A program made the translations under genes and the position numbers. A model generated the notes under the pieces. The model made no database searches and was not told the DNA's origin. It saw only the letters and a list, made by a program, of their open reading frames with translations. DNA of 64,000 nt from Bryobacteraceae bacterium (GTDB taxonomy: Bacteria; Acidobacteriota; Terriglobia; Bryobacterales; Bryobacteraceae), in NCBI GenBank assembly GCA_035297145.1, contig DATGZN010000030.1:6881-70880 (forward strand), in the 5' to 3' direction. Shown in pieces: positions 1 through 19,940 of the stretch (position 1 is the stretch's first letter; each line of letters begins with the position of its first letter).

Positions 1-1983
1 AGTGCCGAAGAAGGCTTCGAGATCGTGCGACGGCGGCTATTCGAGCCGCTCGCCGATCAGGCGCAATTTAAGGACCGCGACGTAGTGGCGCGGGCTTTTG
101 CAGATTTCTACCGGACTCAGCACCAGGAATTCCCGCCCGAGTGCCACGATGCCGATTACGAGAAGCGGATTAAGGCAGCTTATCCGATACACCCGGAGAT
201 TTTTGACCGGCTCTACACTGACTGGTCCACGCTCGTGAAGTTTCAGCGCACACGCGGCGTTCTCCGCCTGATGGCCGCGGTGATTCACAGCCTGTGGGAG
301 AAGGGCGACAAGAACCCATTGATTCTGCCCGCCAATATCCCTATCGACGATCCGCGCGTGCAGTTCGAACTCACGCGCTACTTGTCCGACAATTGGGTGC
401 CGATTCTTGAAAAGGACGTTGATGGCCCGAGCTCCCTGCCACTGAGGCTCGACGGGGAGGTGCCGAATCTTGGCAAATTCGCCGCTTGCCGGCGCGTGGC
501 CCGAACCATCTATCTAGGGTCGGCGCCTACGGCGACGGCCGCCAACCGTGGCATCGAGGACCGGCGCGTGAAGCTCGGGTGTGTGATGCCGGGTGAGTCT
601 CCTGCGGTATTTGGCGACGCCCTGCGACGACTCACCGCCGCCGCAACCTATCTCTATCAGGACGGGCCGCGCTATTGGTATTCGACGCAACCGACTGTTA
701 CCAAACTCGCTGATGACCGCGCGGAGCAATTTAAGCGAGACACGGATAAGGTCGTGCACGAGCTGGACAAGCGCCTGAGAGCCGATCTTCGCAAAATGGG
801 TGACTTCAAACGCGTGCATCCGATGCCGGGCTCCAGTGCCGATGTGCCGGACGACCTTGACGCACGACTTGTGGTTCTTGGCGTTGACCACGCCTACAGC
901 AAGGAGCCTGACAATGCCGCCGAGACGGCGGCCAAAGGAATTTTTGAAAAGCGCGGCGCCGCGCCGCGCCTCTACCGAAACACGATCATCTTTCTTGCCG
1001 CCGACAAGACCCGGCTGCAGGACCTGGACGAAGCTGTGCGAAAGTTCCTCGCGTGGGACTCGATCCTAGATGAGAAGGATAAGCTCGACCTCTCGCCACA
1101 CCAGGTAAAGCAGGCCGAGACGCAGAAAACGGCAGCCGACGGCGCCGTGACGGCCAGGCTTCCCGAAACGTATCAGTGGTTGCTGGTGCCAACGCAGGAG
1201 ACCCCGCAAGCCCCCGTCACGTGGCAGACAATACGTCTGTCAGGGAACGATGCGCTTGCGGAGCGTGCCAGTAAGAAGCTGAAAAACGATGAATTGCTCG
1301 TGGTCAACTTTGCCGCGTCGCGCCTTCGCATGGACATGGACCACGTACCCTTATGGCGCGGAAATCATGTGCCAATTCGCCAGCTCGTAGAGGACTTCGG
1401 TCGCTACCTCTACCTGCCGCGCTTGCAGACCACCACCGTTCTCCTGAATGCTATCCGCGCGGGGCTTGCGCTGTTGACGTGGGAGCACGACGCTTTCGCC
1501 TACGCTGAAAACTACGACGAATCTGGAGCCCGTTATCGCGGCCTTCACTCCTGCGCACAGGTGAATGTCGCCGCAGATGACACGGGCCTGCTCGTGCGGC
1601 CCGAAATAGCCAGACAGCAGATTGACCTTGAGACGGCTCCGCCTAGCCCTGCTGGCGCAGATACCGGCGATCCAAGGTCACCCGGACCCGACGGCCTGTC
1701 GCCGCAGCCGACCACTCTTCCATCCGGACCGGTTCAACCGTTAAAGCCCCAGCGGTATCACGGCACGGTCGTTCTTGACTCCGCGCGGGTTGGGCGCGAT
1801 GCCGGCAGGATCGCGGATGAGGTTGTTACCCATCTCGTCGGGCTCGTCGGATCATCGGTGCGCGTCACTTTGGAAATCGAAGCGGAGATCCCCGGCGGAA
1901 CTCCTGACAACGTCGTGCGGACGGTCACGGAGAACAGCCGGACCCTGAAGTTCGAGAGCAACAGCGGCTTCGAGACGGAGTAG
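1..1983 (+). CDS. DUF499-type (BrxC/PglY-like) defence-associated ATPase, C-terminal ~660 aa. The 5' end is outside the window.
   Basis: Frame 1 is open from nt 1 (SAEEGFEIV precedes the first Met at 25). Motifs IHPEIFDRLYTDWS and FQRTRGVLRLMA match my recollection of DUF499 proteins. A Pro-rich linker is followed by a small C-terminal domain. Stop at 1981-1983. Confidence 0.6.
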   Translation, partial: SAEEGFEIVRRRLFEPLADQAQFKDRDVVARAFADFYRTQHQEFPPECHDADYEKRIKAAYPIHPEIFDRLYTDWSTLVKFQRTRGVLRLMAAVIHSLWEKGDKNPLILPANIPIDDPRVQFELTRYLSDNWVPILEKDVDGPSSLPLRLDGEVPNLGKFAACRRVARTIYLGSAPTATAANRGIEDRRVKLGCVMPGESPAVFGDALRRLTAAATYLYQDGPRYWYSTQPTVTKLADDRAEQFKRDTDKVVHELDKRLRADLRKMGDFKRVHPMPGSSADVPDDLDARLVVLGVDHAYSKEPDNAAETAAKGIFEKRGAAPRLYRNTIIFLAADKTRLQDLDEAVRKFLAWDSILDEKDKLDLSPHQVKQAETQKTAADGAVTARLPETYQWLLVPTQETPQAPVTWQTIRLSGNDALAERASKKLKNDELLVVNFAASRLRMDMDHVPLWRGNHVPIRQLVEDFGRYLYLPRLQTTTVLLNAIRAGLALLTWEHDAFAYAENYDESGARYRGLHSCAQVNVAADDTGLLVRPEIARQQIDLETAPPSPAGADTGDPRSPGPDGLSPQPTTLPSGPVQPLKPQRYHGTVVLDSARVGRDAGRIADEVVTHLVGLVGSSVRVTLEIEAEIPGGTPDNVVRTVTENSRTLKFESNSGFETE

Positions 1984-2156
1984 GGGAGCCTTAGAGGGCA
2001 CGGCGATTGTGGCGGGCTGGCAAGGGTCCTGAAGCTGGAGGAAGTGCTTGGAATCTTGATGAAAACATCCTGCTACCCACCAGGGTGAGCAGGCTCCTGG
2101 GGAACAGCTTTGAAGCTATAAAGCATCGAAACGACTGCAGCAGCCGTTCGCCAGTC

Positions 2157-2193
2157 TTGACAATCGTCTCATAAACTGCCATAATCGTCTCAT
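2157..2193 (+). promoter_or_regulatory. Near-consensus sigma70-type promoter (TTGACA-17 nt-CATAAT) with an 11-nt direct repeat. It implies a leaderless or near-leaderless start for the AAA+ gene.
   Basis: TTGACA at 2157-2162, 17-nt spacer, CATAAT at 2180-2185, ATG at 2192. AATCGTCTCAT occurs at 2162-2172 and again at 2183-2193. Confidence 0.45.
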
Positions 2194-3349
2194 GAACAAG
2201 GACACTAGCTTCATGAGCGAGCTATTTCGTATCGTTAACGGTGCGCTTCGTCTCGACATAGACAAAGTCCGTAACTATACAGCGTTCCTCGCCGATAAAC
2301 TTGAAAAGGCAGGAGATGTAGCTTCTGCCGGACGCCTGCGCAAAATGCTCGAAGAGAGTGATCAGCAACTGCGGCCGGCCGGGGCGGCGTTTGCCAAAGT
2401 TCTGCCTGTCGATGCAGATAGCCGTTTCCCGCTCATAGAGCGGGTGAATCTAAAAACACTTTCCGAGCCTCCGGTTATGCTCGGCCAGGAGCAATGGGAC
2501 ACCGTCAACGAATTTCTGAGCATCGCGAAGAGCTATGCCCAGGCCGAAGTGAATGGCCTCACCACGTCGCTTAGCTTCTTGATGTACGGCCCGCCGGGAA
2601 CGGGGAAAAGCCGCCTCGCGCGGTACATCGCCCAGGAGCTGGGCCTTGACTTGTACGTCGCACGCCTCGATGGGTTGATCTCCTCATTCCTCGGAAGCAC
2701 GTCGAAAAACATTCGCGCTCTTTTTGACTTTGCGGCCAAGACTCCGTGTGTCCTGTTTCTCGATGAGTTCGATGCGATCGCGAAGCTGCGCGGCGACAGC
2801 CAGGAGCTGGGGGAACTGAAGCGCGTGGTGAACAGCTTCATCCAGAACCTGGATACGCTGGGCACTCAATCCATCGTGATCGCCGCGACGAACCACCAGG
2901 AACTGCTCGACTCGGCAATATGGAGGCGCTTCAGCTACCGGCTGGCGCTGGATTTTCCTACGGCGGATTTGCGCCGGAAGATGTGGGCTGCATTCATTGA
3001 GGAGTTGCAGTTCACGGCGCGGGAAATAGAGCTGCTGGTCGATCTGTCGGAAGGTTTCACCGGGTCAGACATTCACGAAGTCTGCGTGCGTCTCCACCGC
3101 CGCCGGATTACGAGGAAGGAGTTCCCCGAGCTGAAGGACGCCTTCCAGGTTCTCCAGAACATGGGCATCGGCGAAGGCGAAGACCGTCGCTTCTTATCGC
3201 TTCTGAGGGGTAAGGATGAGCATGCTGTCGCAACCAGGCTCCGTGACAGAAACGCCAAGCTATACAGTCACGCCGCTCTCGCCGATCTGTTGGGCGTTTC
3301 AAAAGCGACTGCTCATCGATGGGCGAAGGGAGTAAATACCGATGGCTGA
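2192..3349 (+). CDS. Classic-clade AAA+ ATPase with a C-terminal helix-turn-helix (IetA-like partner of the downstream subtilase).
   Basis: Walker A GPPGTGKS, Walker B VLFLDEFD, sensor-1 VIAATN, RRF arginine-finger region. C-terminal LADLLGVSKATAHRWAKG is HTH-like. 8-nt overlap with the next gene. Confidence 0.85.
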   Translation: MNKDTSFMSELFRIVNGALRLDIDKVRNYTAFLADKLEKAGDVASAGRLRKMLEESDQQLRPAGAAFAKVLPVDADSRFPLIERVNLKTLSEPPVMLGQEQWDTVNEFLSIAKSYAQAEVNGLTTSLSFLMYGPPGTGKSRLARYIAQELGLDLYVARLDGLISSFLGSTSKNIRALFDFAAKTPCVLFLDEFDAIAKLRGDSQELGELKRVVNSFIQNLDTLGTQSIVIAATNHQELLDSAIWRRFSYRLALDFPTADLRRKMWAAFIEELQFTAREIELLVDLSEGFTGSDIHEVCVRLHRRRITRKEFPELKDAFQVLQNMGIGEGEDRRFLSLLRGKDEHAVATRLRDRNAKLYSHAALADLLGVSKATAHRWAKGVNTDG

Positions 3350-5687
3350 TACACCGAGACCACCCCGGCAGGAACGCCTGCTGATAAAGGTCATCATGCC
3401 CAAACAAGGCACCGAGCGTAAGGTTGCGGGCGGCGGAGCGCCGCCTAAGCCGTTCCGGCCGGTTGACGCGAAGTACCGGGCGCGTCTTTCCAGCCAGGTT
3501 TCGGCTATACGCACCGCCATCGTTCCGCAGATCCGGACGGCCGGCGCCGCGCCCGTGCGGGTGAAGCTGCTCTCGAAGGCGGCGGCCAAAAGCCATCGGC
3601 CGGAGCATTTGTTCTCGCCTGAATCCTGCCCGATCGTGGGCGGCGGAAGCCTCGGGGAATTGTTCGTCAAGGCGACGCCGGAAGGATTGGACCGCCTCGC
3701 CGCGATGATCGAGAGCCGCGAGTCCGATCAGATGACGAAGGAGCTTTCTTGCGTTGAAACGATCGAGCCTGTGACGCCCGCCTATCGTCGCAGCGGTCTC
3801 GATGCCAAGGACCTGCTTCGCCGGAGCCCCCGCGGCAAACACGGTTTCATCACGCGGGTGGGTCTTTTCAACTTCGGCGCGGACCGCGACCAGCCCAAGT
3901 TGGTCGAAGATTTTGAAAGCACGTGCCGGAAGCGCGACATCAGGGTGCGCAGCAACCGGGGATATTCGCCGTCGAGCTTCACGTACGAAATCGAGTGCCG
4001 GAACGTCGACGATGTTGAGGCCCTGTCCCGCGTGATCGGCGTGCGTTCGATAACGCCCATGCCGCTCATTCGGACCATCCGTCCTCGGATGTTCGCGGCG
4101 AAGCCGTTGCCGCCTCTTCCGAGCGCCGATGACGTGACAGGAGACTTCCCCGTAGTGGTCGTTGTGGACAGCGGGATTTCCGACCAGATTCCCGGCCTGG
4201 AGAGCTGGGTCGTGGGGCGCGACTCTCAAGTCGCGCCGGAATACAGGAACACCGATCACGGTTCCTTCGTGGCGGGCCTCATCTGCTGGGGCGGCCAGCT
4301 TAATCCCACCATCGCCGGGCTCGACAACGGCCCGTGCGGAGTGTTCGATCTTCAGGTGATCCCGAATGAAGATCCCGCGAAAGGGGATACGCTCCCCTTG
4401 CTGGAATCAGAGTTTCTCGTCTCGCTGGACGAGGCGCTTCAGCAGCACGCCAATAGGTATAAGGTTTGGAATCTCTCGCTCGGCACGGACACTGTTTGCT
4501 CGCTCGACCAGTTTTCCAAGCTTGCCGAAGAACTCGACAATCTGCAGGAGCGATACCAGGTTTCCTTCGTCATCAGCGCCGGGAACTATGACACGCCGCC
4601 GCTCCTGGACTTCCCGCGCACGGGCGGCCAGGTGCAGGCCGGAAGGATCACCACGCCTGCCGACAGCGTCCTCGGGATCACTGTTGGCTCGGTGTCGCAC
4701 GTCGATTACAAGAAGGACGGGCCAAAGGAGCATCACCCTTCGGCCTTCTCGCGGCACGGCGCCGGGCCGAACTATGTGATCAAGCCTGACCTCATTCATT
4801 ACGGCGGATCGTGCTCTACGGACCTATCGCACATTTCCGGAATTCGTTCGGTGAACGGGACCGGCTCCGCTGAGAATGTTGGGACGAGCTTCGCTACGCC
4901 ACTTGTCGCCCGGACCCTTGCGCAGATCTATCATCAGGTCACGCCGACACCGTCGCCGGTGCTTGCCAGAGCCCTGCTGACGCACCACGCGCGCGATCCG
5001 CGTACCGCTCTCCGGGTGCCTGACGGAGACGAGAATTTCTTCGGGTTTGGCTTGCCTGCCCCGGTGCCGTATTGCCTGGAATGCACCCCGCATACGTCGA
5101 CGCTTGTTTTCGACGACGTGCTCCGGCCAGGGTATTTTCTCGAATGGAATGATTTCCCTTATCCGCCCTCGCTGAGCCGTGACGGGAAATATTTCGGCGA
5201 GATATGGATGACGGTGGCCTTCGCGCCGGCACGCGGCGCGAGATGGGGGACGGAATACTGTGAAACCCACATCGATGCTCATTTTGGGGTCTACCGGACC
5301 CAGAAATCGCGTGAGACAGGGCTGGTCAAAGCGAAACCAATATTTGTCGGCCTGGTGCCCCCGGAGCACAAGAACGTGGGCGAGCTTTACGAGTCCTACC
5401 AGGTGGAAAAGCTGCGCAAGTGGGCTCCGGTCCGGACGTATTACGGCGATCTCGGTGAGAACGGTGAGCGCGGCGATCGCTGGCGCATGATGGTTCGCCT
5501 TCTCACGCGGCATGGGATCGAGGATGAAGAAGCTTTCAAGCCGCAGCCTTTCTCTTTGATCGTGACGATTTCCGACCCGGAGAAGAAGGCACGGGTCTAT
5601 GACGAGATGGCGCAGATCGTTCGCAACCGCTTCCAGTCGCAGAACCTCACGGTTCGCGCGGCGGCGCGCGTTCGAGCAAAGCAATGA
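3342..5687 (+). CDS. S8 (subtilisin-family) serine peptidase, IetS-like.
   Basis: Catalytic motifs VVVVDSGIS (Asp), DHGSFVAGLI (His), NLSLG (oxyanion Asn) and GTSFATPLVAR (Ser). GAAGGGAG SD upstream. Start overlaps the stop of the AAA+ gene (ATGGCTGA). Confidence 0.9.
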   Translation: MADTPRPPRQERLLIKVIMPKQGTERKVAGGGAPPKPFRPVDAKYRARLSSQVSAIRTAIVPQIRTAGAAPVRVKLLSKAAAKSHRPEHLFSPESCPIVGGGSLGELFVKATPEGLDRLAAMIESRESDQMTKELSCVETIEPVTPAYRRSGLDAKDLLRRSPRGKHGFITRVGLFNFGADRDQPKLVEDFESTCRKRDIRVRSNRGYSPSSFTYEIECRNVDDVEALSRVIGVRSITPMPLIRTIRPRMFAAKPLPPLPSADDVTGDFPVVVVVDSGISDQIPGLESWVVGRDSQVAPEYRNTDHGSFVAGLICWGGQLNPTIAGLDNGPCGVFDLQVIPNEDPAKGDTLPLLESEFLVSLDEALQQHANRYKVWNLSLGTDTVCSLDQFSKLAEELDNLQERYQVSFVISAGNYDTPPLLDFPRTGGQVQAGRITTPADSVLGITVGSVSHVDYKKDGPKEHHPSAFSRHGAGPNYVIKPDLIHYGGSCSTDLSHISGIRSVNGTGSAENVGTSFATPLVARTLAQIYHQVTPTPSPVLARALLTHHARDPRTALRVPDGDENFFGFGLPAPVPYCLECTPHTSTLVFDDVLRPGYFLEWNDFPYPPSLSRDGKYFGEIWMTVAFAPARGARWGTEYCETHIDAHFGVYRTQKSRETGLVKAKPIFVGLVPPEHKNVGELYESYQVEKLRKWAPVRTYYGDLGENGERGDRWRMMVRLLTRHGIEDEEAFKPQPFSLIVTISDPEKKARVYDEMAQIVRNRFQSQNLTVRAAARVRAKQ

Positions 5688-5726
5688 GCAGTGCAGTAAC
5701 TGAATACACGAGAAGGAGAATTCAAA

Positions 5727-6188
5727 ATGTCTGAACAAGAACACAAGCACGAGGTACGCATTCATATCGATCAGCACCCCTACGAATCGCCGAACCCGAC
5801 CACGGGCGCGGCGCTCTACGCGCTAGGCAACGTTCCAGCGGGCCTTGAACTTTACCGGGAAGTGAGCGGCGACAGGGAAGACAAGCCGATCGAGAACGGG
5901 CCGGAGGTCGTCCACCTGAAGGAGGACGAGCACTTCCACAGCGGCCCGCCCAAGACATACACGATTTACGTGAACGGCGAACAGAAAGTGGTAACCACCA
6001 AAACCGTCTCCTTCGCCGAGATCGCCAAGCTCGCGTATCCGATACCGCCGACGGGCGACAACATTCTGTATACGGTTTCCTACGAAGATGGTCCGCCTGC
6101 CAACCCGCAGGGCTCGATGAAGGAGGGCGAAACCGTCAAGGTCAAGAACGGGATGATCTTCAATGTCACAGCGACCGATAAGTCGTAG
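5727..6188 (+). CDS. Multiubiquitin-domain protein (two tandem beta-grasp/ubiquitin-like repeats).
   Basis: AAGGAG SD 7 nt upstream. Two internally similar halves (VRIHIDQHPY... and YTIYVNGEQK...). The C-terminal ...[16 protein letters not shown] matches my memory of the multiubiquitin (Multi_ubiq) family ending. Confidence 0.8.
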   Translation: MSEQEHKHEVRIHIDQHPYESPNPTTGAALYALGNVPAGLELYREVSGDREDKPIENGPEVVHLKEDEHFHSGPPKTYTIYVNGEQKVVTTKTVSFAEIAKLAYPIPPTGDNILYTVSYEDGPPANPQGSMKEGETVKVKNGMIFNVTATDKS

Positions 6189-7347
6189 CGCGGACCTGAA
6201 AAAACTGCGCGACGAAGGATATGACCTGGAAATCCGATCCGGCTGTTTGCTGGTGAAAGATGTGCCGTATGTGAACTCCCTCAAGGAGGTCAAACGCGGA
6301 ATCCTGGTCATGAAGCTGGTGCTCGCGGACGACGAGACGGCGCGTCCCGACGACCACGTGGCCTACTTTTCAGGCGATCATCCGTGCTTTGAGGACGGTA
6401 CCGAAATCGCGAAGATCAAGCACGGGAGCGGCGAGCGCTCGCTGGCTGAAGGCGTGGTGATACAGCATTCGTTTTCGGCAAAGCCCAAGCCGCACGATTC
6501 CTACCCGGATTACTATGCCAAGGTGACGTGGTACGTGAGTATCCTTTCCGGCCCCGCCTGGAGGATCGACAAGTCCACGGCGAAGACCTTCCCGTTCATC
6601 GAGCCGGAGAAGGATGACGACGAGCCGTTCAATTACACCGATACCGCTTCCAGCAGGGCCGAAATCGTCGCCGTTACTAATAAGATGGCGCTGAAGAAGA
6701 TCGCGATCGTGGGCATGGGTGGGACCGGGTCTTATGTGCTGGATCTCGTCGCGAAGACGCCCGTCCGGAAAATTCACATCTATGACGGGGACGCCTTCCT
6801 GCAGCACAATGCGTTCCGGTCGCCAGGCGCGCCTTCGGGCGATGACCTGCGGGCCAAGCAGTCCAAGGTGACGTACTTCAAAAACCTTTACGCCCGGATG
6901 CACAATGGCATCGTCGATCACGCCGTTTATATCGATGCCGGGAATGTGGAAGAACTACGCGGCATGGATTTCGTGTTTCTTTGTGTCGACAAGGGCAGCG
7001 TGAAAAAAGTGATCGTCGAAAAACTCGAAGAGTTTAACGTCCCGTTCAGCGACGTGGGCATGGGCATCCAGTTGAAGAACGGAGCCCTGGGCGGCATCGT
7101 GCGGGTTACTGCGAGCACGGAGAAGAAGCGCGACCACTTTCGCGGCAGGGTTTCCTTCGGGGACGCCGCGAGCGGAAACGAATACGATCGCAACATCCAG
7201 ATCGCCGACATGAACGCCCTGAATGCCGCTCTCGCCGTCATCAAGTGGAAGAAGCTCTTCGGCTTCTACCGCGATCTTAAATCCGAGCATCATAGCCAGT
7301 TCAGCATCGACACCAACCTGCTCCTCAACGAAGATAGGCCGCAATGA
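6163..7347 (+). CDS. ThiF/E1-like adenylyltransferase with a ~170-aa N-terminal extension (possibly a prokaryotic E2-like domain).
   Basis: Rossmann motif [19 protein letters not shown] followed by IYDGDAF. The N-terminal [28 protein letters not shown] is typical of E1s linked to multiubiquitin. 26-nt overlap with the Ubl gene. Confidence 0.8.
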
Positions 7348-7799
7348 AACAGGGAATCGTCCTCAAGCACGAATTTGTCGAGTTCATCCCTGGCGAACTC
7401 AAGGAGGGGACGATTTACATTTCGATCCGGTTTGGGACGGCATCGCACCTGTGTTGTTGCGGCTGCGGCAACAAGGTCGTCACGCCGCTGCGACCCACGG
7501 ACTGGAAGCTCATTTTTGACGGCAAGACCGTTTCGCTCGACCCCTCGATCGGGAACTGGAGTTTCGCGTGCCGGTCTCACTACTGGATAAGGAATAACAG
7601 GGTTCGATGGGCGGCTCAGTGGTCTCCGGAAGAGATCGCGGCCGGAAGAGCCCATGACCGGTTTGCGAAGGATAGATATTTCGACACCGCTGACACGGCG
7701 ACGGATGGTGCGCTGAAGAAAGCTCCAGTGACGGTGGAAACCGCCAAGGCGGGACCGCGTTGGTGGTTGAGGATAAAGAAGTGGTGGCAGCGCTCATGA
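7344..7799 (+). CDS. DUF6527-family protein (Cys-cluster small protein of Ubl-conjugation operons).
   Basis: ATGA overlap with the E1 stop. Cys cluster [15 protein letters not shown] and the GNW motif (SIGNWSF), which I recall as the hallmark of DUF6527. Confidence 0.7.
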
Positions 7800-7835
7800 T
7801 GAAGCTCCGAGGGCGACGCCTGGAACAAGAGAACA

Positions 7836-9005
7836 ATGATACCTAAGCCGATAGACCAAATCACCGAAGCAGACCTCAGCGACCTCGTAAGCGCTAGCGT
7901 TGCCGAACGAAAAACACTCGATTACAAACAACAACTGCCGGATACGAACGATGCCGGCAAGAGAGAACTGCTGGCAGACGTTTCATCTTTTGCGAACACG
8001 GCGGGCGGAGATCTCGTTTTCGGCATGACGGAGAGCGCCGGCGTGCCGACAGCCATACCTGGGGTCCAGATCGGAAACACCGACCAGGAGATTTTGCGGT
8101 TCGACAACATCATCCGGGATGGGCTGTCCCCCCGCATCCGCCACACAACGAGGGCGGTGCCTCTGACGAACGGCGGTTATGTCCTGATCATCCGATCGGA
8201 GCGGAGCTGGTACGGTCCTCACCGAGTAATTTTCAAAGGCGACAGCAGGTTTTACGGGCGCACCACCAACGGCAAATATGAGCTTGATGTAACCGACTTG
8301 CGCAATGCGTTTCTCTTCGCAAGCGCCGTGACCGAAAAGATTTCAGCTTTCAGGGCAGAACGGGTCATCGCGTTGGAAAACGGCCAGCCGCTCGCCCCGC
8401 TCGCGGAAGGTCCGAAACTCGTTATCCATTGCATGGCCCTCGAATCCTTCGGAGCCAGGCCGCAATATGACGTCCTGGCCCTTGACGGAATTCAGCCCAT
8501 GTATGCGACACGCCTGAGCGGTTGGGGAGCGCGCATAAACTTTGAAGGCCGGATTTTCATTGCGTCGGGCGAACCCTCTAGCGCGTATACGCAAATCTAC
8601 AGGAACGGAGTGATAGAAGCCGTTCGCGTCGGCGTCTTGAACAGCCCCCAAAGTCCAGGCGTCATACCCAGTCTTGCGTACGAGGAAGCCGTGGTAGGCT
8701 ATCTGCCGCAGTGTTTCCAGATCATGAGGCAATTGGGATGTAGTCCGCCGGTTCTGGTTGGGATCACATTGATCGGCGTACGGGGGCTGAAGTTGGCGGT
8801 TGACGTGATGGTTGAATTGTCGATGGGGGGCGCCAAGGCAATCGACCGAGACGTCCTTATGCTGCCTGAGATCGTTGTCGAAGATCTTTCCACTCCGGCC
8901 GCGCCGCTGCTGAAGCGGACCCTCGACCTGGTTTGGAACGCCTGCGGATTTCCCTCGTCGCCATATTTCGATGCCGCTGGAAAATGGATGGGGCGAACCC
9001 GCTGA
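7836..9005 (+). CDS. AlbA_2 (Schlafen-like) domain protein with an uncharacterised ~260-aa C-terminal region.
   Basis: N-terminal ERKTLDYKQQL...LLADVSSFANTAGGDLVFGM...YVLIIRSERSW...FYGRT follows the AlbA_2/'divergent AAA' pattern (E-x-K ... AFANT-GG-L-GV ... Y-R). Confidence 0.7.
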   Translation: MIPKPIDQITEADLSDLVSASVAERKTLDYKQQLPDTNDAGKRELLADVSSFANTAGGDLVFGMTESAGVPTAIPGVQIGNTDQEILRFDNIIRDGLSPRIRHTTRAVPLTNGGYVLIIRSERSWYGPHRVIFKGDSRFYGRTTNGKYELDVTDLRNAFLFASAVTEKISAFRAERVIALENGQPLAPLAEGPKLVIHCMALESFGARPQYDVLALDGIQPMYATRLSGWGARINFEGRIFIASGEPSSAYTQIYRNGVIEAVRVGVLNSPQSPGVIPSLAYEEAVVGYLPQCFQIMRQLGCSPPVLVGITLIGVRGLKLAVDVMVELSMGGAKAIDRDVLMLPEIVVEDLSTPAAPLLKRTLDLVWNACGFPSSPYFDAAGKWMGRTR

Positions 9006-9043
9006 AGCGGAAGATCTGGGTACGGCCGGGGTGTCACGAACCA

Positions 9044-9502
9044 ATGATTGTCGAGTTTAATTTGCATCCGACGCTCGGTGAGGGGGTCTACGCACACGTT
9101 TTCCAAATAGATGATAAGGCATACAAGCTGTTCTTGGCCTTCCCTTCTCATCACAGCGAGGAGAAGCGTAGATCAACTTTCCAGTCGCAATGTGCGGCGT
9201 ATCAGCGTGCCGGTTCTGACCCTGATCTAAAGGAACACGTTGCTACTTTCTACGGCACTTGCGTCATTGAGGACGTGATTGATAAAACAGGACAGAGCAT
9301 CAAGGGCAACTATATGCTGGACTGTTGCTATGTTCTCGAAGCGCTGAACGGCAGCAAAACGAAGGTTCTGGCAGTCCGTGATGCCTTCAGCTATGTGGGC
9401 GAAGCTTACGTCGCCTTCCATCAGAAGGGTTTCACTTTGGCGGACGCCGATATTTTCAATTTTGACGACCCGGAGCGGTTTAAGTTTGTTGACTTTCACT
9501 GA
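9044..9502 (+). CDS. Small (152 aa) protein with protein-kinase-like motifs, ending right after a DFG-like motif.
   Basis: LGEGVYAHVF (Gly-loop-like), AYKLF (beta3 Lys-like), LADADIFN (xxDxxxxN catalytic-loop-like), VDFH at the C-terminus. Start is uncertain: ATG at 9044 (after the upstream stop), 8984 or 8933. Confidence 0.4.
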   Translation: MIVEFNLHPTLGEGVYAHVFQIDDKAYKLFLAFPSHHSEEKRRSTFQSQCAAYQRAGSDPDLKEHVATFYGTCVIEDVIDKTGQSIKGNYMLDCCYVLEALNGSKTKVLAVRDAFSYVGEAYVAFHQKGFTLADADIFNFDDPERFKFVDFH

Positions 9503-9604
9503 ACGATGGCCACTCAGGCCGCGCGGGCGTGGCCCGTGCGGAGACGGGGGACTTCGCCGTCGGCGTGAACAGCGCGGGGGCCGGGGAGAGGACGATTTCG
9601 GTGA

Positions 9605-10405
9605 TCATGGGTGCGCTCCTGGTGAAGGTTTCAAGCGATCGACGATCCTTAAAAGCTGGCTGGCGAATACGATCACCTCGGCGGCGTCTTCCGGATGCGT
9701 CGGGACGTGGCGGTGACTTTGTGGGTTCTTATAAAGACCGATCGCGCCCGCGAAGAGATTGGCCATCGCTTCCTGTTCGGCGGCCGGTAGCTGCGTATCC
9801 GTAAGCGGGCCGGGGGTTACCGCCTGGCCCTTCTTCTCGGCGGGCTTGAAGGCGTCGCGCATCAGCTCCGTGCCGTAGTCATTGGGTCCGAAGCTGCCTC
9901 CGGCGCGGACGGCGACTTCTACTTCCCGGAAGGCCTGGAAGACGGCCGTGTCGTATTCGCCGCGCATGAAAGCCGGATATACCTTGCTGGCGATGAGCGG
10001 GTGAAGCTGGGCTTTTGGCAACAGGCCCGCTTTGCGATAGGCCCCAAATTCATCGCGGGATGTGATCTGCTTGGCCCGCCGCGACACGAGGAACCAGCCC
10101 CCGGTCGAGCTTGGCTTTTCCACGAGTAAGCCCGCGCTCTGAAGCCATGCCCAGGCCTCCATGAGCGCCAGGTTCACGTCGGGTTGCCGGTTGCCGTACT
10201 CCGGCTGCTCTCGGGCGTTCGTGGGGGTCAGCGAATTAAAGAAATTGTGGCGGCTGATGCCGCCGTGCTGGTGGACGGTGTTCCCGGACACGCCCTCATA
10301 GCTGTTGAGGTGCAGGAGCAGGATGCCGGCGAGTTCTTCCACGGCGAGATCGAGGAGGTCTGCGGCATTCGGGACGAAAGACGATAAAGAGCGATACATG
10401 GTCAT
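9605..10405 (-). CDS. TIGR02391 (Hypoth_Ymh)-type protein, possibly HEPN-related.
   Basis: C-terminal half LHPLIASKVYPAFMRGEYDTAVFQAFREVEVAVR...LFAGAIGLYKNPQSHRHV...AAEVIVFASQLLRIVD fits the TIGR02391 pattern, with K where the usual RNP-x-x-H motif has R. ATG at 10405 overlaps the upstream stop (ATGA). Confidence 0.65.
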   Translation of the reverse strand: MTMYRSLSSFVPNAADLLDLAVEELAGILLLHLNSYEGVSGNTVHQHGGISRHNFFNSLTPTNAREQPEYGNRQPDVNLALMEAWAWLQSAGLLVEKPSSTGGWFLVSRRAKQITSRDEFGAYRKAGLLPKAQLHPLIASKVYPAFMRGEYDTAVFQAFREVEVAVRAGGSFGPNDYGTELMRDAFKPAEKKGQAVTPGPLTDTQLPAAEQEAMANLFAGAIGLYKNPQSHRHVPTHPEDAAEVIVFASQLLRIVDRLKPSPGAHP

Positions 10406-11106
10406 TGCACCGGGGGAACGCCGCGGACGATGACCAGGCGGCGGTTGTTGCGGGCGTCCCAGTCGAGCTCGATGCGGCTTAACGGCTCGGTGCATTGCTC
10501 GTCGCAGAACTGCGTGAAGTTAAACGTCACGTTGAAGGGATCGACGCTGACGACGGTGGCCATGCCCTCGCGATCAACGCCCGGCGCCCACTCCGGATAG
10601 TGGTTGCCGAGGCGCTTGTTGACGGTGCGGACGGTGACGTATTTGCCTTTGCACTTCAGCAGCTCTCCGGCCGGGCTGCAATGCGAGGTGAGGAGGTCAC
10701 GATAGAGACTGTCCGAGGCCTTCACGCTCCGGGAACCGGAGCGAATGTAGGCCGGGCCTGCAAAATGCGGCTTGTCCTTGCTATAGGAGATTTCGACGGC
10801 GACAACGCGCTTCCCGTCGAGATCCAGGACGCTCTTCCCCGGACGGATGGCCGGATAGCACTCTTCCCCGGCTTCGCCGACGCGCCTCTGCACTTTCTCG
10901 GGGTCATCGACTCCGAGGAGAGCGCCGGTCTTGTCGTCGACCCCGATGAACAGTACGGCCGTTTCCGTTTCTGGCAGGGAATTCGAAAAGGCGACCAGCG
11001 TCTGACGCAGCTCGTGGCCTTTGACGGATTGCGGCTTTCGTTCGACGAAATTATCTTCGGAGGGGCGTGTCGCCAGGCGAGCGGTGAGCCGTTGTTCGGT
11101 TGTCAT
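10402..11106 (-). CDS. AlbA_2 (Schlafen-like) domain protein, second copy.
   Basis: EDNFVERKPQS...LVAFSNSLPETETAVLFIGVDD...GKRVVAVEISYSKDKPHFAGPAYIRSGSRS matches the AlbA_2 pattern. The ATG at 11106 gives an ATGA overlap with the upstream stop (an alternative ATG lies at 11124). Confidence 0.7.
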   Translation of the reverse strand: MTTEQRLTARLATRPSEDNFVERKPQSVKGHELRQTLVAFSNSLPETETAVLFIGVDDKTGALLGVDDPEKVQRRVGEAGEECYPAIRPGKSVLDLDGKRVVAVEISYSKDKPHFAGPAYIRSGSRSVKASDSLYRDLLTSHCSPAGELLKCKGKYVTVRTVNKRLGNHYPEWAPGVDREGMATVVSVDPFNVTFNFTQFCDEQCTEPLSRIELDWDARNNRRLVIVRGVPPVQ

Positions 11107-12110
11107 GCGCTGGCCCTTTCCCACTGGTCATATTTCTGAACGAGAGGTTCCTTGGCGATGTCGAGGGGCTGTCCCCACAGCGCGCGACGCTGATCGTCCG
11201 GGAGCTTCCAGAAGGCCGCGATCGCGGCTTCCGTCCCGAAGTGGTTCCGGAGCGCGGCCTCGCGGAGCAACCGTGAATACGCGTCACGAGCGAGGTGCTC
11301 GATTTGCCTGGTCCTGTGCCAGCAAACGTCCTCCCGCTGGTCAGCGGGATAACTCTGCACGGCTTCGTCCCAGGGGTTCAGGTGCTCCGTGTCGCTGCGC
11401 ATGGCGAAGGCCTCCACCAACAGGTCGCGGGTGTCGTCGCCGGCGCGGGCGAAGGTCTGGCAGCGGTGTACGAATTGTTTTTCAGTCCGGCCGATGTCCG
11501 GGAGGATGAGGGCCTCCAGTGATCTGACGAATTGATGGAGACGGTCCTGGCCGGTCTCCTTCAGGCCGTTGAACAGCGTATTCATTCCTCGAATGACCCG
11601 CCTGAACTGGGTTTTGTCGGCGTCCATCGCTGCGACGCCCGCGCGTAGCGAGATGCCGTCTTCAAGCCAGGCCGTGTTGATGGGCGCACGCTTCCAGCCT
11701 TTGCTTTGGTGGAACGCGGGCATCTGGCTCATCTGCCGGATGCCGGGAACGCCGTTGACGGAAGATCCACACAACAGATCGGCGCCGTCGGCGACCTCGA
11801 TGCCGGCGCGGAGGTGCAGCATGTAGAACAGCAGGCTCAGGTCATTGTCCAGCCGGTGGTGCACAGCGTCGAGGATTTCGGGATTGTCCGATGGTTCTTC
11901 CACAAAGAGCACGAGATTGGCCCGGCCGAGGCGCTCCATGCGGATGGAACCGATCCACTCTTTCCAGATGCCGAGGTCGGGGACCGGCACGGCGGGCATC
12001 ACCCAGGTTCCATCGGAAAGCTGGAACGCGGCGCCGGGAAGGTCGGTGTAGACGTTATTGACTGTCAGCATGGCGAACTTGCTTTTAGTCTGGAACGAGT
12101 GGAGGCCCAT
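11103..12110 (-). CDS. Hypothetical 335-aa protein with an Rx4H (HEPN-like) motif in a helical C-terminal half.
   Basis: Long ORF with normal composition. FAMRSDTEHL contains R-x4-H. No other family recognised. Confidence 0.55.
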   Translation of the reverse strand: MGLHSFQTKSKFAMLTVNNVYTDLPGAAFQLSDGTWVMPAVPVPDLGIWKEWIGSIRMERLGRANLVLFVEEPSDNPEILDAVHHRLDNDLSLLFYMLHLRAGIEVADGADLLCGSSVNGVPGIRQMSQMPAFHQSKGWKRAPINTAWLEDGISLRAGVAAMDADKTQFRRVIRGMNTLFNGLKETGQDRLHQFVRSLEALILPDIGRTEKQFVHRCQTFARAGDDTRDLLVEAFAMRSDTEHLNPWDEAVQSYPADQREDVCWHRTRQIEHLARDAYSRLLREAALRNHFGTEAAIAAFWKLPDDQRRALWGQPLDIAKEPLVQKYDQWERASA

Positions 12111-12156
12111 GGTTCCATCGTAGCCGCGGTCTGGCGTGATGCCCCGCCAGTGCCAA

Positions 12157-12447
12157 CTATTCCGGGTCGTCCCAGCTCAAGGTGCACCGTTCTCCATGGG
12201 CAATCTGCCGCTCATAGCTGACCGGGTCGTCAGCCTTGAGCCGGAGTAACCAGTAAACGCGGTTCACGGCGTTCTTCATGATGAGCTTAATTTCGTCATC
12301 AGAGATCCGCGAATAGCCGACTTTGCCGTTGCAAGCGGGACAAGTTTTGCCGGCGTGCACGTCCTCGATCGGGCCGTTGCGAAACGCCAGGACGACAATG
12401 GCTTTTGCTTCACGGATAAGATCGCTCTGATCGGATTTTGGTGTCAT
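12157..12447 (-). CDS. Hypothetical 96-aa protein, first gene of the four-gene operon.
   Basis: ORF directly downstream of a strong promoter-like element. Contains CPAC. No family recognised. Confidence 0.5.
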   Translation of the reverse strand: MTPKSDQSDLIREAKAIVVLAFRNGPIEDVHAGKTCPACNGKVGYSRISDDEIKLIMKNAVNRVYWLLRLKADDPVSYERQIAHGERCTLSWDDPE

Positions 12448-12482
12448 TTCGAGTGCGCTTCTTTCAAGCTGACTGAAACGGC

Positions 12483-12511
12483 AGTATAACGGTACTTTGA
12501 GTCGCGGTCAA
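12483..12511 (-). promoter_or_regulatory. Sigma70-type promoter (TTGACC-17 nt-TATACT) reading into 12447->9605.
   Basis: The reverse complement of 12483-12511 reads TTGACC GCGACTCAAAGTACCGT TATACT, about 35 nt upstream of the ATG at 12447. Confidence 0.45.
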
Positions 12512-12560
12512 AACCTCGCGGCCAGTGCATGACGCGACCTAGAATGGAGCAAGCAGGCGG

Positions 12561-12854
12561 CTAGCGCAATGTCGGCCGCCGACTGAACAACAGCCCCTTC
12601 GGACCTTTCCACTCCTGGCGCCGCTGCTCAATCCACCGCTGCAGTGCGGCTCCTTCGACGGTGTACACCTTGCCGCTGTTCACGACCTCGAAAACCGTAG
12701 CCACGGTCGGGACCGGCAGTACCGCCTGCAGCTGCGCGTTGGCATGAGTGACGTAAAGATGCGCAGCGTCATAAGTACTCGACGCGATAACGTCCAGGCT
12801 GTGCCGGCGGCCGGACGCATCCGTGACGGTAACCGTGCACCAGTGTTCGGGCAT
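12561..12854 (-). CDS. Hypothetical 97-aa protein.
   Basis: ORF with plausible composition. No motif recognised. Confidence 0.4.
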   Translation of the reverse strand: MPEHWCTVTVTDASGRRHSLDVIASSTYDAAHLYVTHANAQLQAVLPVPTVATVFEVVNSGKVYTVEGAALQRWIEQRRQEWKGPKGLLFSRRPTLR

Positions 12855-12949
12855 ACCAAAAATAGTTTACCGCCATGGGCGAACAAACGGAGAATACACG
12901 CACGGACGCTGCGGGGCTACGCGGCTTCGGCTTCGTCGGCCGGCTGATT

Positions 12950-13402
12950 CTACCGGCGCGCGGATCGCCCCCGCGTTGAGCCGGACCGGTTGGGAGCAGG
13001 CGACAGAGCTTCCAGAATGCGGCAATTGCCGATTAGACTTTTTCCCGGACACCGGCGCTGGATTCGGCGCAGCTCAGCCGCAAGCCCTCGCAGGTCGGCG
13101 ACTTTCCGCTCAATTTCCTTCAGGTGGTTCGCAGTAATTCGATCGACCTCGGAACACTTCTGCCTAGGTTGAGTGGACAGGCGCAGAAGATCGCGGACCT
13201 GGTCGAGCGTGAAGCCGAAGCTCCGGCATCGGTGAATGAACTGCAGCCGGTGCAAGTGTTCCTGCTTGTAGGCGCGGTAATTACCCTCCGTGCGCGGCGG
13301 CGGCGGCATGAGTTTGATTTGCTCGTAATACCGGATGGTCACGACCTTGACCCCAGCTTCTTTCGAGAGATGGCCGATGCTCATACGCCCGGCTAAATTC
13401 AT
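12950..13402 (-). CDS. MerR-family, heavy-metal-type transcriptional regulator.
   Basis: N-terminal HTH MSIGHLSKEAGVKVVTIRYYEQIKL and NYRAY. C-terminal Cys pair CPGKSLIGNC plus an upstream Cys (QKCSEV), as in CueR/ZntR/CadR-type sensors. Start at 13402 (MNLAG) or 13384 (MSIGH). Confidence 0.8.
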   Translation of the reverse strand: MNLAGRMSIGHLSKEAGVKVVTIRYYEQIKLMPPPPRTEGNYRAYKQEHLHRLQFIHRCRSFGFTLDQVRDLLRLSTQPRQKCSEVDRITANHLKEIERKVADLRGLAAELRRIQRRCPGKSLIGNCRILEALSPAPNRSGSTRGRSARR

Positions 13403-15071: not shown

Positions 15072-15536
15072 ATAGGCCTCCTTGTTTTTTGCTCAACTAC
15101 GGGCAACAAGGGGCCGGCCGGAAAAGCGTGACTGTCACCGTTAGGGAAACGGCCAACACGGGAGCGAAGCGAACGGAGCGGGCAGAGCCGTTGACAGGCA
15201 CGCGCGGGCGGCCATGATGCCCGATAGTGGGTTGAGCAAAACGAGAGAGGCCGAGGCTGAGAAACTGACGGAAATCGAAGGCAGCTTTACGGCTGGTGTG
15301 CGGCTGTCCTAAAGAGGCCGGGCGGGAAACGCTGGCGAATCGGCCGTGGCTTAGAGGCGAGATGGGGCGCGGTCCCGGATTCGCAAGCCTGGGTCAGAAA
15401 AAGCAAGGAGTGGCAGATAGTTGGCGGAAGCGGTTCCCGGAAAACCTTCGGAGCAGATGACGGTTGGTAGACGCGCAATTGCGCGGCGAGGATGCATACG
15501 ATAGTGTGACGACGAGAATCTGAAGGGGACTATTTC

Positions 15537-19128: not shown

Positions 19129-19194
19129 GGCGCTGGAAAGAAGATATTGCTAGGCGGCAGGGAGAGGGACAGCAGATTTTGTATGGGACAAGCC

Positions 19195-19821: not shown

Positions 19822-19851
19822 CGTGTTCTCCGGTCTTGTTATGGTCACTGT

Positions 19852-19940
19852 GTTCGGTTACATAAACGGTCGGTTATGTGACAGCAGCCGAGACCGGTGT
19901 TTTGGACGAGAAGTTAGTAAGATAACTTGTCACATAATCT
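19852..19940. promoter_or_regulatory. Candidate res-like recombination site upstream of the resolvase.
   Basis: GTTACATAA-N8-TTATGTGAC imperfect dyad (19857-19882). AAGTTA-N6-TAACTT dyad (19911-19928). A third TGTCACATAA copy (19928-19937). Confidence 0.35.

Follow-up and report, generated by a model that had tools for sequence, protein, structure and literature searches.

Seven co-directional genes occupy positions 2157–9502 of the window, the 64,000-nt stretch of DNA analysed here, and all seven lie on the + strand, as the first-pass annotation had proposed. Based on the ORF listing, they are ietA (2192–3349, 385 aa), ietS (3342–5687, 781 aa), bubA (5727–6188, 153 aa), bubBD (6163–7347, 394 aa), bubE (7344–7799, 151 aa), a gene for an SLFN_AlbA_2 protein (7836–9005, 389 aa), and a small last ORF. 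Recomputed from the ORF coordinates, the junctions measure -8, +39, -26, -4, +36, and +38 nt, the same values as those originally given. For the last ORF the listing gives 8933–9502, starting at TTG; homologues of 144–174 aa, five of them 150–154 aa, support the ATG start at 9044 and a 152-aa product (9044–9502). The best + strand terminator-like site (9807–9830) lies past the cluster end, and such matches are overall at chance level (16 found vs. 12.7 ± 4.0), but weak matches with stems of 5–6 bp do exist within coding sequences at 2731, 2938, 5024, 6226, 6957, 9414, and 9437. The surroundings form a dense defence island, with HmaC upstream at 25–1983 and Gabija downstream at 15537–19128. A serine recombinase and an ArdC-like gene were also observed near the cluster, and tRNA genes adjoin some islands.

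The first two genes encode IetAS, which has been published as an anti-phage system and also as a pair resembling toxin-antitoxin modules, and the original label was correct. IetA matches the PADLOC IetA profile (8.5e-124) and Pfam AAA (2.5e-29). Against NCBIfam IteA it scores 375.6 bits, under the equivalog cut-off of 510, and the NCBIfam matches ranking after IteA are CdvC, CDC48, FtsH, and PAN. Walker A spans G133–S140 (with K139), Walker B is DEFD at 191, and SFLG, as read from the sequence, is an aromatic-hydrophobic-Gly motif at the pore-loop position. The C-terminal HTH at approximately residues 354–385 matches HTH_23 with 21.2 bits, under the Pfam cut-off of 24.6. IetA is a classic-clade AAA+ ATPase with a weak C-terminal HTH, in agreement with the first reading. 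IetS, whose start codon region overlaps ietA by 8 nt, matches PADLOC IetS (PDLC02200, 1418.6 bits) over its full length, as well as Pfam Peptidase_S8 (3.6e-26). Its catalytic residues D276, H306, N415, and S516 are invariant across 48 homologues, confirming the intact D/H/N/S set noted before.

The next three genes make up a complete Type II Bub (6E.2) operon of the published Multi_ubiq / DUF6791+ThiF / DUF6527 type, so that the earlier Bub/6E label also stands. BubA (Pfam Multi_ubiq, 1e-24) is a ubiquitin-like beta-grasp protein with TDKS directly before the stop codon. BubBD had been described as an E1 with an N-terminal extension; it is in fact an E2-E1 fusion (DUF6791, 8.7e-53; ThiF, 7.2e-10). 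Across 83 homologues, the conserved residues are H65, S105, and K107 in the E2 part and G184–G189, R219, and the crossover-loop tyrosine Y341 in the ThiF adenylation domain, matching the published S106/R219/Y342 of the E. coli protein. BubE, whose start overlaps the bubBD stop within ATGA, was correctly recognised as DUF6527 (2.9e-26), a family named BubE in the precomputed Pfam annotation. Residue conservation marks a zinc site (C37/C39/C41/C76), the serine candidates S68 and S78, and H79. In the published mechanism of Type II Bub, BubBD adenylates the C-terminal Ser of BubA and hands it on through Tyr and Ser oxyester intermediates to target proteins, and BubE takes BubA off the targets again.

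The first-pass annotation had suggested that the subtilase matures the ubiquitin-like protein, standing in for the JAB peptidase of Type I Bub. Two features speak for this and nothing else does: a JAB peptidase is absent, and the BubA C-terminus is not Gly. However, JAB is typically missing from Type II Bub operons, and the non-Gly end is nothing special, as T[DN][KR]S stands right before the stop codon in 80 of 81 Type II BubA proteins, whether IetAS is present or absent, and leaves no extension to trim. Moreover, E. coli BubA, BubBD, and ATP yield conjugates in vitro. With this conserved Ser end and in vitro conjugation, nothing is left for a subtilase to mature. Nor does the locus lack a DUB-type peptidase, as had been stated, since BubE (DUF6527) has been published as a BubA-specific Ser-His peptidase that cleaves both BubA fusions and conjugates. 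Maturation by IetS is therefore close to refuted, and we consider it highly improbable.

The near-consensus promoter reported at 2157–2185 is real. The IetAS promoter region (2157–2191, + strand) abuts the ietA ATG at 2192, with a -35 TTGACA at 2157–2162 and a -10 CATAAT at 2180–2185; it matches the consensus at 11 of 12 positions, with a 17-nt spacer and TG ahead of the -10. It is the sole + strand promoter-like site in 1–13000, although the scan alone is not significant (two sites found on both strands vs. 3.5 expected from shuffles). The real evidence for the promoter is conservation, as both hexamers are kept across 51 distinct homologous upstream regions. Within it lie two + strand copies of CGTCTC (2165–2170 and 2186–2191), spaced 21 nt apart. 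Four positions of copy 1 and two of copy 2 are invariant in 51/51 regions, and every position but the fourth of each copy is kept in at least 47 of the 51. No conservation was found 5' of the -35 among these regions, and DNA homology with approximately 50 IetAS loci begins at 2153–2157. This arrangement suggests a leaderless ietA mRNA and an operator made of the two CGTCTC copies, to which the IetA HTH probably binds.

The ietS and bubA genes are separated by a 39-nt spacer (5688–5726, + strand) containing only an SD (AAGGAGAAT). This spacer serves as the Bub leader and is fused straight onto the ietS stop codon. In 15 related loci a spacer of 33–51 nt carries the same SD, and L011, an unlinked Bub operon, has the same leader after an AT-rich promoter region of its own. 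Unlinked relatives have their own promoter or regulator, which IetAS-linked Bub modules lack. At this locus the Bub module likewise has no promoter of its own among the + strand sites in 1–13000. With the leader joined to the ietS stop codon, this suggests that all five genes are transcribed from the IetAS promoter.

The conserved unit ends there, and the seven-gene unit originally proposed does not stand. DNA homology with related cassettes ends at approximately 7800. The AlbA_2 label itself is sound (Pfam SLFN_AlbA_2, 1.8e-13), and the gene starts 36 nt after bubE. It sits in a variable segment flanked by anchors common to a related locus (L008) and is a lineage-specific addition outside the conserved cassette. 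Except for one unrelated upstream AlbA_2 match, neither this protein nor the 152-aa ORF has a homologue in 153 related loci. The 152-aa ORF is rare, with 10 homologues among 5.8 billion proteins, in unrelated genomic contexts. It had been called kinase-like, but no match was found in Pfam, NCBIfam, or PADLOC, and its AlphaFold2 model has a pLDDT of 40.8. Both genes are somewhat more probably than otherwise unrelated local additions in the dense defence island.

To place the five-gene cassette in context, neighbourhoods of IetS and Bub homologues were compared. The co-occurrence check on IetS homologues was positive: of 54 close IetS relatives that were informative, 22 carry BubA-BubBD-BubE directly downstream and co-directional, and 17 of 46 do so once duplicates are removed. 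Bub fills 41% of after-IetS slots, far above any other cargo, and is found next to IetAS of three different subfamilies, across three phyla. From the Bub side, IetAS is directly upstream in 4 of 75 species-representative loci and directly downstream in one. Leaving regulators aside, the PADLOC family seen most often beside Bub among the matches listed is that of IetS-like proteins (7/74 loci). In L051 the order is reversed, with IetAS after Bub. Two archaeal loci, L042 and L044, have an IetS-like S8 protein next to BubE but lack IetA, and in L044 the orientation is convergent. Similar peat and soil metagenomes are the source of many linked loci, whose IetAS are 80–92% identical, so these loci are not fully independent. 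IetAS-Bub adjacency is far above chance in related microbes. No description of the pairing was found in the searched papers on Bub, CapK/CapS, and IetAS, and the first-pass annotation was not aware of one either.

The specificity and recurrence of this association speak for an integrated, ubiquitin-proteasome-like pathway, the logic proposed initially, in which Bub would tag phage or host proteins for IetA to unfold and IetS to degrade, or BubA would switch IetA/IetS on or off. The three IetAS subfamilies, both gene orders, and the S8-only archaeal partners fit it, as do the classic AAA clade of IetA with its CdvC, CDC48, FtsH, and PAN matches, the SFLG motif, and the different E2-E1-JAB conjugation system that takes the after-IetS slot on Hymenobacter plasmids. 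In addition, no phage-defence phenotype has been published so far for Bub alone, which a missing partner would explain. However, the modules also live apart. Of 74 species-representative Bub loci, 69 have no adjacent IetA+IetS pair, the same holds for 3/3 plasmid loci with inspected flanks, and most of the IetS clade lacks Bub. In the tree, linked IetS branch among unlinked ones, and no domain is specific to the linked ones. In the same IetAS clade, the after-IetS slot alternatively carries, with equally tight spacing, CBASS, Thoeris, and Gabija-like genes unrelated to ubiquitin-like tagging, or an E2-E1-JAB fusion together with an MBL-like protein, among other cargo. Furthermore, Bub carries its own deconjugating peptidase, and subtilases are not self-compartmentalised proteases. 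The shared slot and the many Bub operons without IetAS weaken the proteasome-like logic and make such a pathway unlikely; direct coupling of tagging to IetAS proteolysis is possible but unsupported.

The promiscuous slot also fits passive adjacency, in which mobile defence cassettes share one hotspot and both descent and horizontal transfer carried the arrangement through soil bacteria, with no functional or regulatory meaning. The dense island with its HmaC, Gabija, recombinase, and ArdC-like genes, the metagenomic origin and similarity of the linked loci, and the tRNA genes beside some islands all favour it. In contrast, at least five Bub lineages are represented among the IetAS-linked Bub modules, although their IetAS are mostly 80–92% identical, which indicates that module exchange rebuilt the architecture or kept it in place. 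The IetAS partners belong to three subfamilies; among the matches listed, no non-regulator defence family exceeds IetS-like proteins as the immediate Bub neighbour. The operon-tight, SD-only junction in 15 loci and the lack of a separate promoter or regulator in linked Bub modules also argue against mere proximity, which we regard as a doubtful explanation.

Collectively, these results favour, with a probability of roughly 55%, a composite five-gene defence operon (2157–7799) whose two modules are biochemically autonomous yet co-regulated and co-inherited, rather than parts of one pathway. In such an operon, the modules would be coupled through regulation and probably not through direct biochemistry, and selection may favour their pairing because the two defences are complementary or synergistic, or because they share expression control. 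The pairing thus offers a concrete lead to the roles of both systems.

The autonomy of the two modules is visible elsewhere. In IetAS-only loci, DNA homology spans 2155 to approximately 5690, and stand-alone Bub triads are found on plasmids and among the closest Bub relatives, preceded by HTH + Peptidase_M78 (CapH/CapP-like) or HATPase-type (CapK-like) genes. If IetAS were purely a regulatory front end, L051 and the archaeal L042 and L044 would be unexplained, and these loci hint at a more specific affinity; moreover, IetAS is itself a defence system and no known regulator. The 41% share of Bub among after-IetS slots also speaks against the favoured reading, unless it simply mirrors how abundant Bub is in these soil taxa. 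The cargo after IetS is largely the repertoire published for Cap-type controllers. Most Bub operons have CapH/CapP-type regulators in place of IetAS, and here IetAS takes the position held by CapH/CapP, CapW, or CapK/CapS regulators in other Bub operons.

The reading that we favour for this region is that two autonomous modules, an IetAS pair and a Bub operon, have been fused into one transcription unit, with IetAS at a position that, in other Bub operons, belongs to regulators. As proposed in the first-pass annotation, the cluster contains seven co-directional plus-strand ORFs. Six of them lie at exactly the coordinates assigned there (2192–3349, 3342–5687, 5727–6188, 6163–7347, 7344–7799, and 7836–9005), and the ORF table opens the seventh at a TTG codon (8933–9502) instead of the annotated ATG at 9044. 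The ATG is supported by the lengths of the homologues of this ORF, which are 144–174 aa, five of them at 150–154 aa. The junctions of −8, +39, −26, −4, +36, and +38 nt likewise match the ORF coordinates. A consensus scan recovered the annotated promoter at 2157–2185, which consists of TTGACA, a 17-nt spacer, and CATAAT, with TG ahead of the −10 element; it is the sole plus-strand promoter-like site in 1–13000. Terminator-like matches inside the cluster are short-stemmed and occur at chance frequency (16 versus 12.7 ± 4.0), in agreement with the proposed lack of an internal terminator, and the folding of 9498–9608, after the last ORF, gives no significant terminator signal (z = −1.03).

The transcription unit had been drawn with seven genes, but the last two do not belong to its conserved part. 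The gene at 7836–9005 encodes an SLFN_AlbA_2 domain (51.5 bits; Pfam cut-off 25.3). The 152-aa ORF (9044–9502) has no match in profile searches of Pfam, NCBIfam, and PADLOC, and its AlphaFold2 model, built from a 10-sequence alignment, has a pLDDT of 40.8. Its sole kinase-like traits are a conserved Gly-rich stretch and the invariant residues K28, E40, D134, and D150, and its homologues occur in unrelated genomic contexts. Because neither gene is found beside the cassette in any related locus, and because DNA homology with related cassettes stops near 7800, the conserved unit comprises five genes, ietA, ietS, bubA, bubBD, and bubE.

The cassette lies in a dense defence island. On the plus strand, 25–1983 encodes a DUF499 ATPase of the HmaC type, of which the C-terminal two-thirds is present (PADLOC HmaC, 2.8e-210). 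Where longer contigs cover the island, the complete protein of 1111 aa includes a HEPN_Swt1 domain and its gene lies after one for DUF1156, which places an Hma system directly 5′ of the IetAS promoter. The density of the island is confirmed 6 kb downstream of the cluster by a complete plus-strand Gabija pair (GajA, 15537–17318, 5.9e-225; GajB, 17230–19128, 7.8e-234; PADLOC). Between them, the variable segment 7836–12447 holds the plus-strand AlbA_2 gene, the 152-aa ORF, a convergent minus-strand block of three genes at 9605–12110 (Hypoth_Ymh with weak HEPN-like matches, another AlbA_2 protein, and a product of 335 aa without a family match), and a minus-strand 96-aa ORF at 12157–12447. In a Bryobacterales locus (L008) only ~1 kb stands in its place. 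The two loci share as anchors a 97-aa ORF (12559–12896 in the window, 12698–13035 in L008) and a serine recombinase gene (19161–19984 and 15454–16272), each 89% identical, which suggests a common mobile-island framework with variable cargo slots. An ArdC-like gene is also present in the island, which was found on more than 20 peat-soil contigs. The GC profile of the window has no sharp island boundary, and no tRNA genes were found within the window. In four related loci (L081, L084, L096, and L130), a tRNA 3′-end-like sequence, GGTTCAAATCC, lies ~30–40 nt 5′ of the IetAS −35 box, suggesting that these IetAS islands integrated at tRNA genes.

The identification of the first two genes as IetAS was borne out by PADLOC, in which IetA matches its profile over residues 7–380 (8.5e-124) and IetS matches PDLC02200 over residues 5–780 (1418.6 bits). 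IetA falls in the classic AAA+ clade and has intact Walker A (GPPGTGKS at 133, including K139) and Walker B (DEFD at 191) motifs and an SFLG motif that resembles a pore loop. For IetS, D276, H306, N415, and S516 are invariant among 48 homologues. The two genes are adjacent and co-directional with an 8-nt overlap, an arrangement seen in all related loci. Both proteins score under the NCBIfam equivalog cut-offs (IetA versus IteA, 375.6 bits, cut-off 510; IetS versus IteS, 495 bits, cut-off 900) and thus form a divergent subfamily. As described in the available text of PMC13069673, IetAS was first reported from an Agrobacterium Ti plasmid, was later assigned a defence role, and is a protease-toxin/ATPase-antitoxin pair whose anti-phage mechanism is unknown. 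In E. coli, according to the accessible part of the literature, it synergises with Zorya II and co-localises with type III restriction-modification. Anti-phage or toxin-antitoxin activity, known from other members, is predicted for the pair in the window.

The IetAS promoter is conserved as a compound element. In an alignment of 51 distinct upstream regions, the order from the −35 box is TTGACA, two variable bases, CGTCTC, a variable stretch, cATAAT, CGTCTC, and ATG, and conservation is essentially absent 5′ of the −35 box. The CGTCTC direct repeat, with copies 21 nt apart, is near-invariant in these loci: four positions of copy 1 and two of copy 2 are invariant in 51/51, and each position of the copies except the fourth is retained in at least 47. 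The ietA ATG lies 6 nt past the −10 element, so the ietA mRNA would be leaderless. Judged from the sequence, the repeats with their 21-nt spacing are a putative operator; its simplest ligand would be the HTH at the IetA C-terminus, the profile match of which falls under the Pfam cut-off. A plasmid IetAS copy, 68% identical, retains the element as AATAAT, CGTCTC, and ATG, and a divergent IetAS subfamily has other direct repeats at ~24-nt spacing.

The next three genes encode Multi_ubiq (BubA, 1e-24), DUF6791+ThiF (BubBD), and DUF6527 (BubE, 2.9e-26) domains in Pfam and correspond exactly to the Type II Bub (formerly 6E.2) operon as published, in line with the 6E/Bub assignment already made from the sequence. 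BubA, a ubiquitin-like β-grasp protein, is encoded by a separate gene, the order is A, BD, E, and no JAB/JAMM peptidase is present in the operon. Since the gene set equals the published one, 6163–7347 encodes an E2–E1 fusion; the E1 of the first-pass annotation stands, and what had been taken for its N-terminal extension is the E2 part. In an alignment of 83 BubBD homologues, the window protein retains H65, S105, K107, R219, and Y341, among which S105/R219/Y341 correspond to E. coli S106/R219/Y342, and it has no catalytic Cys. The window BubBD is 100% identical to a protein of a Bryobacteraceae (Acidobacteriota) metagenome-assembled genome. Similarly, among 74 BubE homologues, the BubE of the window retains the Cys4 zinc site C37/C39/C41/C76 and, for the Ser–His dyad, S68/S78 and H79, both Ser residues being candidates for the catalytic one. 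ATP-dependent BubA conjugation via oxyester intermediates has been demonstrated for E. coli and Citrobacter proteins only, as far as the available literature extends, and is predicted for the proteins encoded here. In the same accessible sources, no Bub operon has so far been reported to protect against phage.

These assignments also bear on the earlier suggestion that, with no DUB-type peptidase in the locus, the subtilase might mature a ubiquitin-like protein lacking a terminal Gly. According to the available text, DUF6527 (BubE) is a Ser–His peptidase that cuts BubA fusions and conjugates, so such a peptidase is encoded in the locus. Moreover, T[DN][KR]S stands directly at the stop codon in 80/81 Type II BubA proteins, whatever their neighbours (TDKS in the window), and the maturation idea fails on this point. 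IetS was consequently rejected as a maturation enzyme for BubA, given the family-wide C-terminal Ser and the published activities of BubE and BubBD.

From the Bub side, 75 BubBD loci from a one-genome-per-species set of bacteria and archaea were compared, nearly all of which carry the BubA–BubBD–BubE triad. Four of them, L008, L071 (Bryobacteraceae), L014 (Gallionellaceae), and L021 (Rufibacter, Bacteroidota), have a bona fide IetA+IetS pair immediately 5′ in the same direction, that of L021 belonging to a different IetAS subfamily. In an Actinomycetota locus (L051), a third subfamily lies directly downstream of BubE. Adjacent pairs thus occur in only 5/74 Bub loci. As a control, the two closest genes on each side of the 74 Bub loci were scanned against PADLOC. 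Among the top-25 matches listed, the leading upstream families were capP (25), HTH_VI (11), capH (9), PDC-M69B (6), IetS (4), and IetA (4), IetS (3) was joint first downstream, and no non-regulator defence family exceeded IetS-like proteins as an immediate Bub neighbour. In a plasmid collection, Bub was found on 126 plasmids and an IetS-like protein on 32; the matches listed include no plasmid with both, and the Bub plasmids inspected hold stand-alone triads. A viral origin was also rejected, since viral contigs scanned with BubBD gave no match.

Further genes were observed around Bub. In two thaumarchaeal loci (L042, 11747–14257; L044, 4050–6876), an IetS-like S8 peptidase flanks the triad beside BubE and IetA is absent; these flanks also hold a small protein resembling a PD-(D/E)xK nuclease. 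In two Bacteroidota loci, a 73–77-aa ORF matching the PADLOC candidate PDC-S16 (5e-30) lies immediately 5′ of BubA (L021, 9300–9521; L029, 9439–9672).

From the IetS side, the pairing is frequent. Among 78 metagenome loci with IetS at 66–92% identity, 54 have at least 800 nt after IetS, and BubA, usually with BubBD and BubE, is directly downstream in 22 of these (41%; 17/46 without near-duplicates). The co-occurrence check proposed from the sequence alone has thus been run, and the link is not confined to this genome. The remaining 32 of the 54 carry other cargo. In 15 loci, including the window, the IetS–BubA spacer is 33–51 nt and contains only an SD; in the remaining linked loci, it is 315–323 nt and holds a conserved 62-aa ORF. 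An ORF of ~62 aa with the consensus ..GLRPGETVPVSGLYQQIGPRGGKGSEVTSVKGEPLPPAP..YKLVDPAKHKSG was seen directly 3′ of IetS in many related loci, whether Bub is present or not (for example, L078, 2456–2644; L087, 6827–7027; L096, 6607–6798; L115, 8374–8565). The window does not contain it, and it matches nothing in Pfam, NCBIfam, or PADLOC.

DNA homology of ~50 IetAS loci to the window starts at 2153–2157, the −35 box, and in loci without Bub it stops at 5669–5690, the ietS stop codon. The IetAS of linked loci are mostly 80–92% identical, and the linked Bub modules span at least five Bub lineages, with BubBD 46% to 79% identical to that of the window. The closest Bub relatives of the window are unlinked (L001, 89%; L002 and L011, 84%); of these, L011 shares the Bub leader of the window, preceded there by an AT-rich region of its own. 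In five more close Bub relatives, genes resembling Cap-type regulators come before the operon: HTH + Peptidase_M78 in the manner of CapH/CapP, a small protein paired with a large one bearing a HATPase domain in the manner of CapK/CapS, and HTH genes. The same regulators appear in the Bub operon counts of the Corbett laboratory, as far as these are accessible. Linked loci are scattered among unlinked ones in the IetS tree; no co-divergence of IetS and BubBD was found, the linked Bub modules being spread over several lineages, and no domain specific to linked IetA or IetS was found.

Where Bub is absent, the slot directly after ietS holds other self-contained immune systems, from −3 to about +320 nt after IetS. 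They include an HNH-SAVED effector (L102, 8334–9527), type III CBASS with TRIP13-like AAA, HORMA, and SMODS proteins (L112, 8337–11147; L114), SMODS-domain proteins (L147 and L149), AAA_21/AAA_15 ATPases (L113 and L136, with a UvrD helicase in L113), a HEPN protein (L078), and Thoeris ThsB and ThsA (L084, 8660–10605). Some of the Thoeris, CBASS, and HNH-SAVED start codons in L084, L112, and L102 overlap the ietS stop codon. On two Hymenobacter plasmids (L160, pHA of Hymenobacter sp. APR13, 5874–12932; L161), an MBL-like protein and a Prok-E2_A/ThiF/JAB fusion follow IetS, so that the slot holds a different ubiquitin-like conjugation system. There, the IetA-like and IetS-like pair precedes, in the same direction, a protein of 394 aa whose N-terminus is MBL/LmuA-like and the 770-aa Prok-E2_A/ThiF/Prok-JAB fusion. 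The cargo after IetS largely matches the list published for CapK/CapS, in which Bub dominates (PMC13373217, available text).

Collectively, the pairing is non-random, as it occurs with several Bub lineages and three IetAS subfamilies, in both gene orders, and with a junction of operon tightness. The first-pass annotation had seen in it the logic of the ubiquitin–proteasome pathway. In such an antiviral degradation pathway, BubA would tag phage or host proteins, IetA would engage them, and IetS would destroy them. If true, this would explain both the lack of a Bub-alone defence phenotype and the unknown IetAS mechanism. However, the near-obligate co-occurrence that belongs to this logic is not observed (5/74 Bub loci; 32/54 IetS relatives without Bub). 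Facultative co-occurrence on both sides, Thoeris or CBASS after the same IetAS clade, and the lack of any linked-specific feature render a single tag–unfoldase–protease pathway uneconomical, and we consider antiviral degradation of this kind unlikely. Direct coupling of tagging and IetAS stays under consideration as a minority hypothesis: an affinity of IetS-type proteases for conjugation systems is hinted at by the S8 neighbours in archaea, by L051, and by the Hymenobacter E2–E1–JAB system, and IetA, of the classic AAA+ clade, bears the pore-loop-like SFLG motif. We therefore favour the fusion of two autonomous modules. By analogy, IetAS may act as a regulator of the adjacent immune operon; in location it corresponds to a Cap-type controller, lying directly upstream of Bub, CBASS, Thoeris, Gabija-like, and MBL-like + E2–E1–JAB systems.

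The accessible literature on Bub, Cap controllers, and IetAS does not mention IetAS, a subtilase, or an AAA+ protein as a neighbour of Bub, and a search returned no paper on the pairing, consistent with the earlier impression that the two had not been described as one unit. Within these sources, the cassette therefore joins two known systems in a new way and does not represent a new kind. Bub has been characterised biochemically as a ubiquitin-like conjugation pathway, and IetAS is validated as a defence system. As a recurrent, operon-tight arrangement, it is a natural construct in which each system may reveal the role of the other, with synergy, shared induction, or direct coupling as possible outcomes. 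The conserved, putatively leaderless promoter with its repeat, ahead of interchangeable cargo (Bub, CBASS, Thoeris, and E2–E1–JAB), resembles Cap-type controllers and may matter equally. If neither holds, the locus is a well-annotated case of defence-island modularity.

Compared with known IetAS, the window pair has the same overlapping A-then-S gene order, an AAA+ ATPase with Walker A/B, and an ~780-aa S8 peptidase with an intact triad, both with full-length PADLOC matches. It differs in belonging to a soil-bacterial subfamily under the NCBIfam equivalog cut-offs, in being followed directly by Bub without an intervening promoter, as in ~40% of its close relatives, and in its conserved, putatively leaderless promoter with repeated CGTCTC, of which the available text of PMC13069673 makes no mention. 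Like ietHAS in that text, it is modular and takes extra genes into its operon, but the ietHAS addition is one upstream SNF2 helicase needed for function, whereas here it is a three-gene conjugation system downstream. The Bub genes resemble Type II Bub as presented by Ye, Gong, Chambers, and Corbett in the accessible part of PMC11601596 in their order, overlapping junctions, and lack of a JAB peptidase, and in the conserved E2 Ser/Lys/His, adenylation Arg, crossover-loop Tyr, and BubE Cys4 + Ser + His. In contrast to about half of Bub operons in the available counts, they lack CapW, CapH/CapP, or CapK/CapS; instead, they are placed behind IetAS and appear to depend on its promoter. Similar to the Cap controllers of PMC13373217 (available text), IetAS directly precedes immune cargo that lacks a promoter, chiefly Bub and after it CBASS, Thoeris, and MBL/E2–E1 systems, has a conserved operator-like repeat inside its promoter, and, like CapH/CapP, pairs an HTH-bearing protein with a protease. 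However, neither IetA nor IetS is related to any Cap protein by sequence, and IetAS in itself constitutes a defence system or toxin-antitoxin pair. Finally, as in the eukaryotic ubiquitin-proteasome and actinobacterial Pup-proteasome systems, a protease and an AAA+ ATPase are encoded alongside a tag that is attached covalently to proteins, but here the protease is a subtilase and not chambered, and the tag set co-occurs with the ATPase and protease only facultatively.
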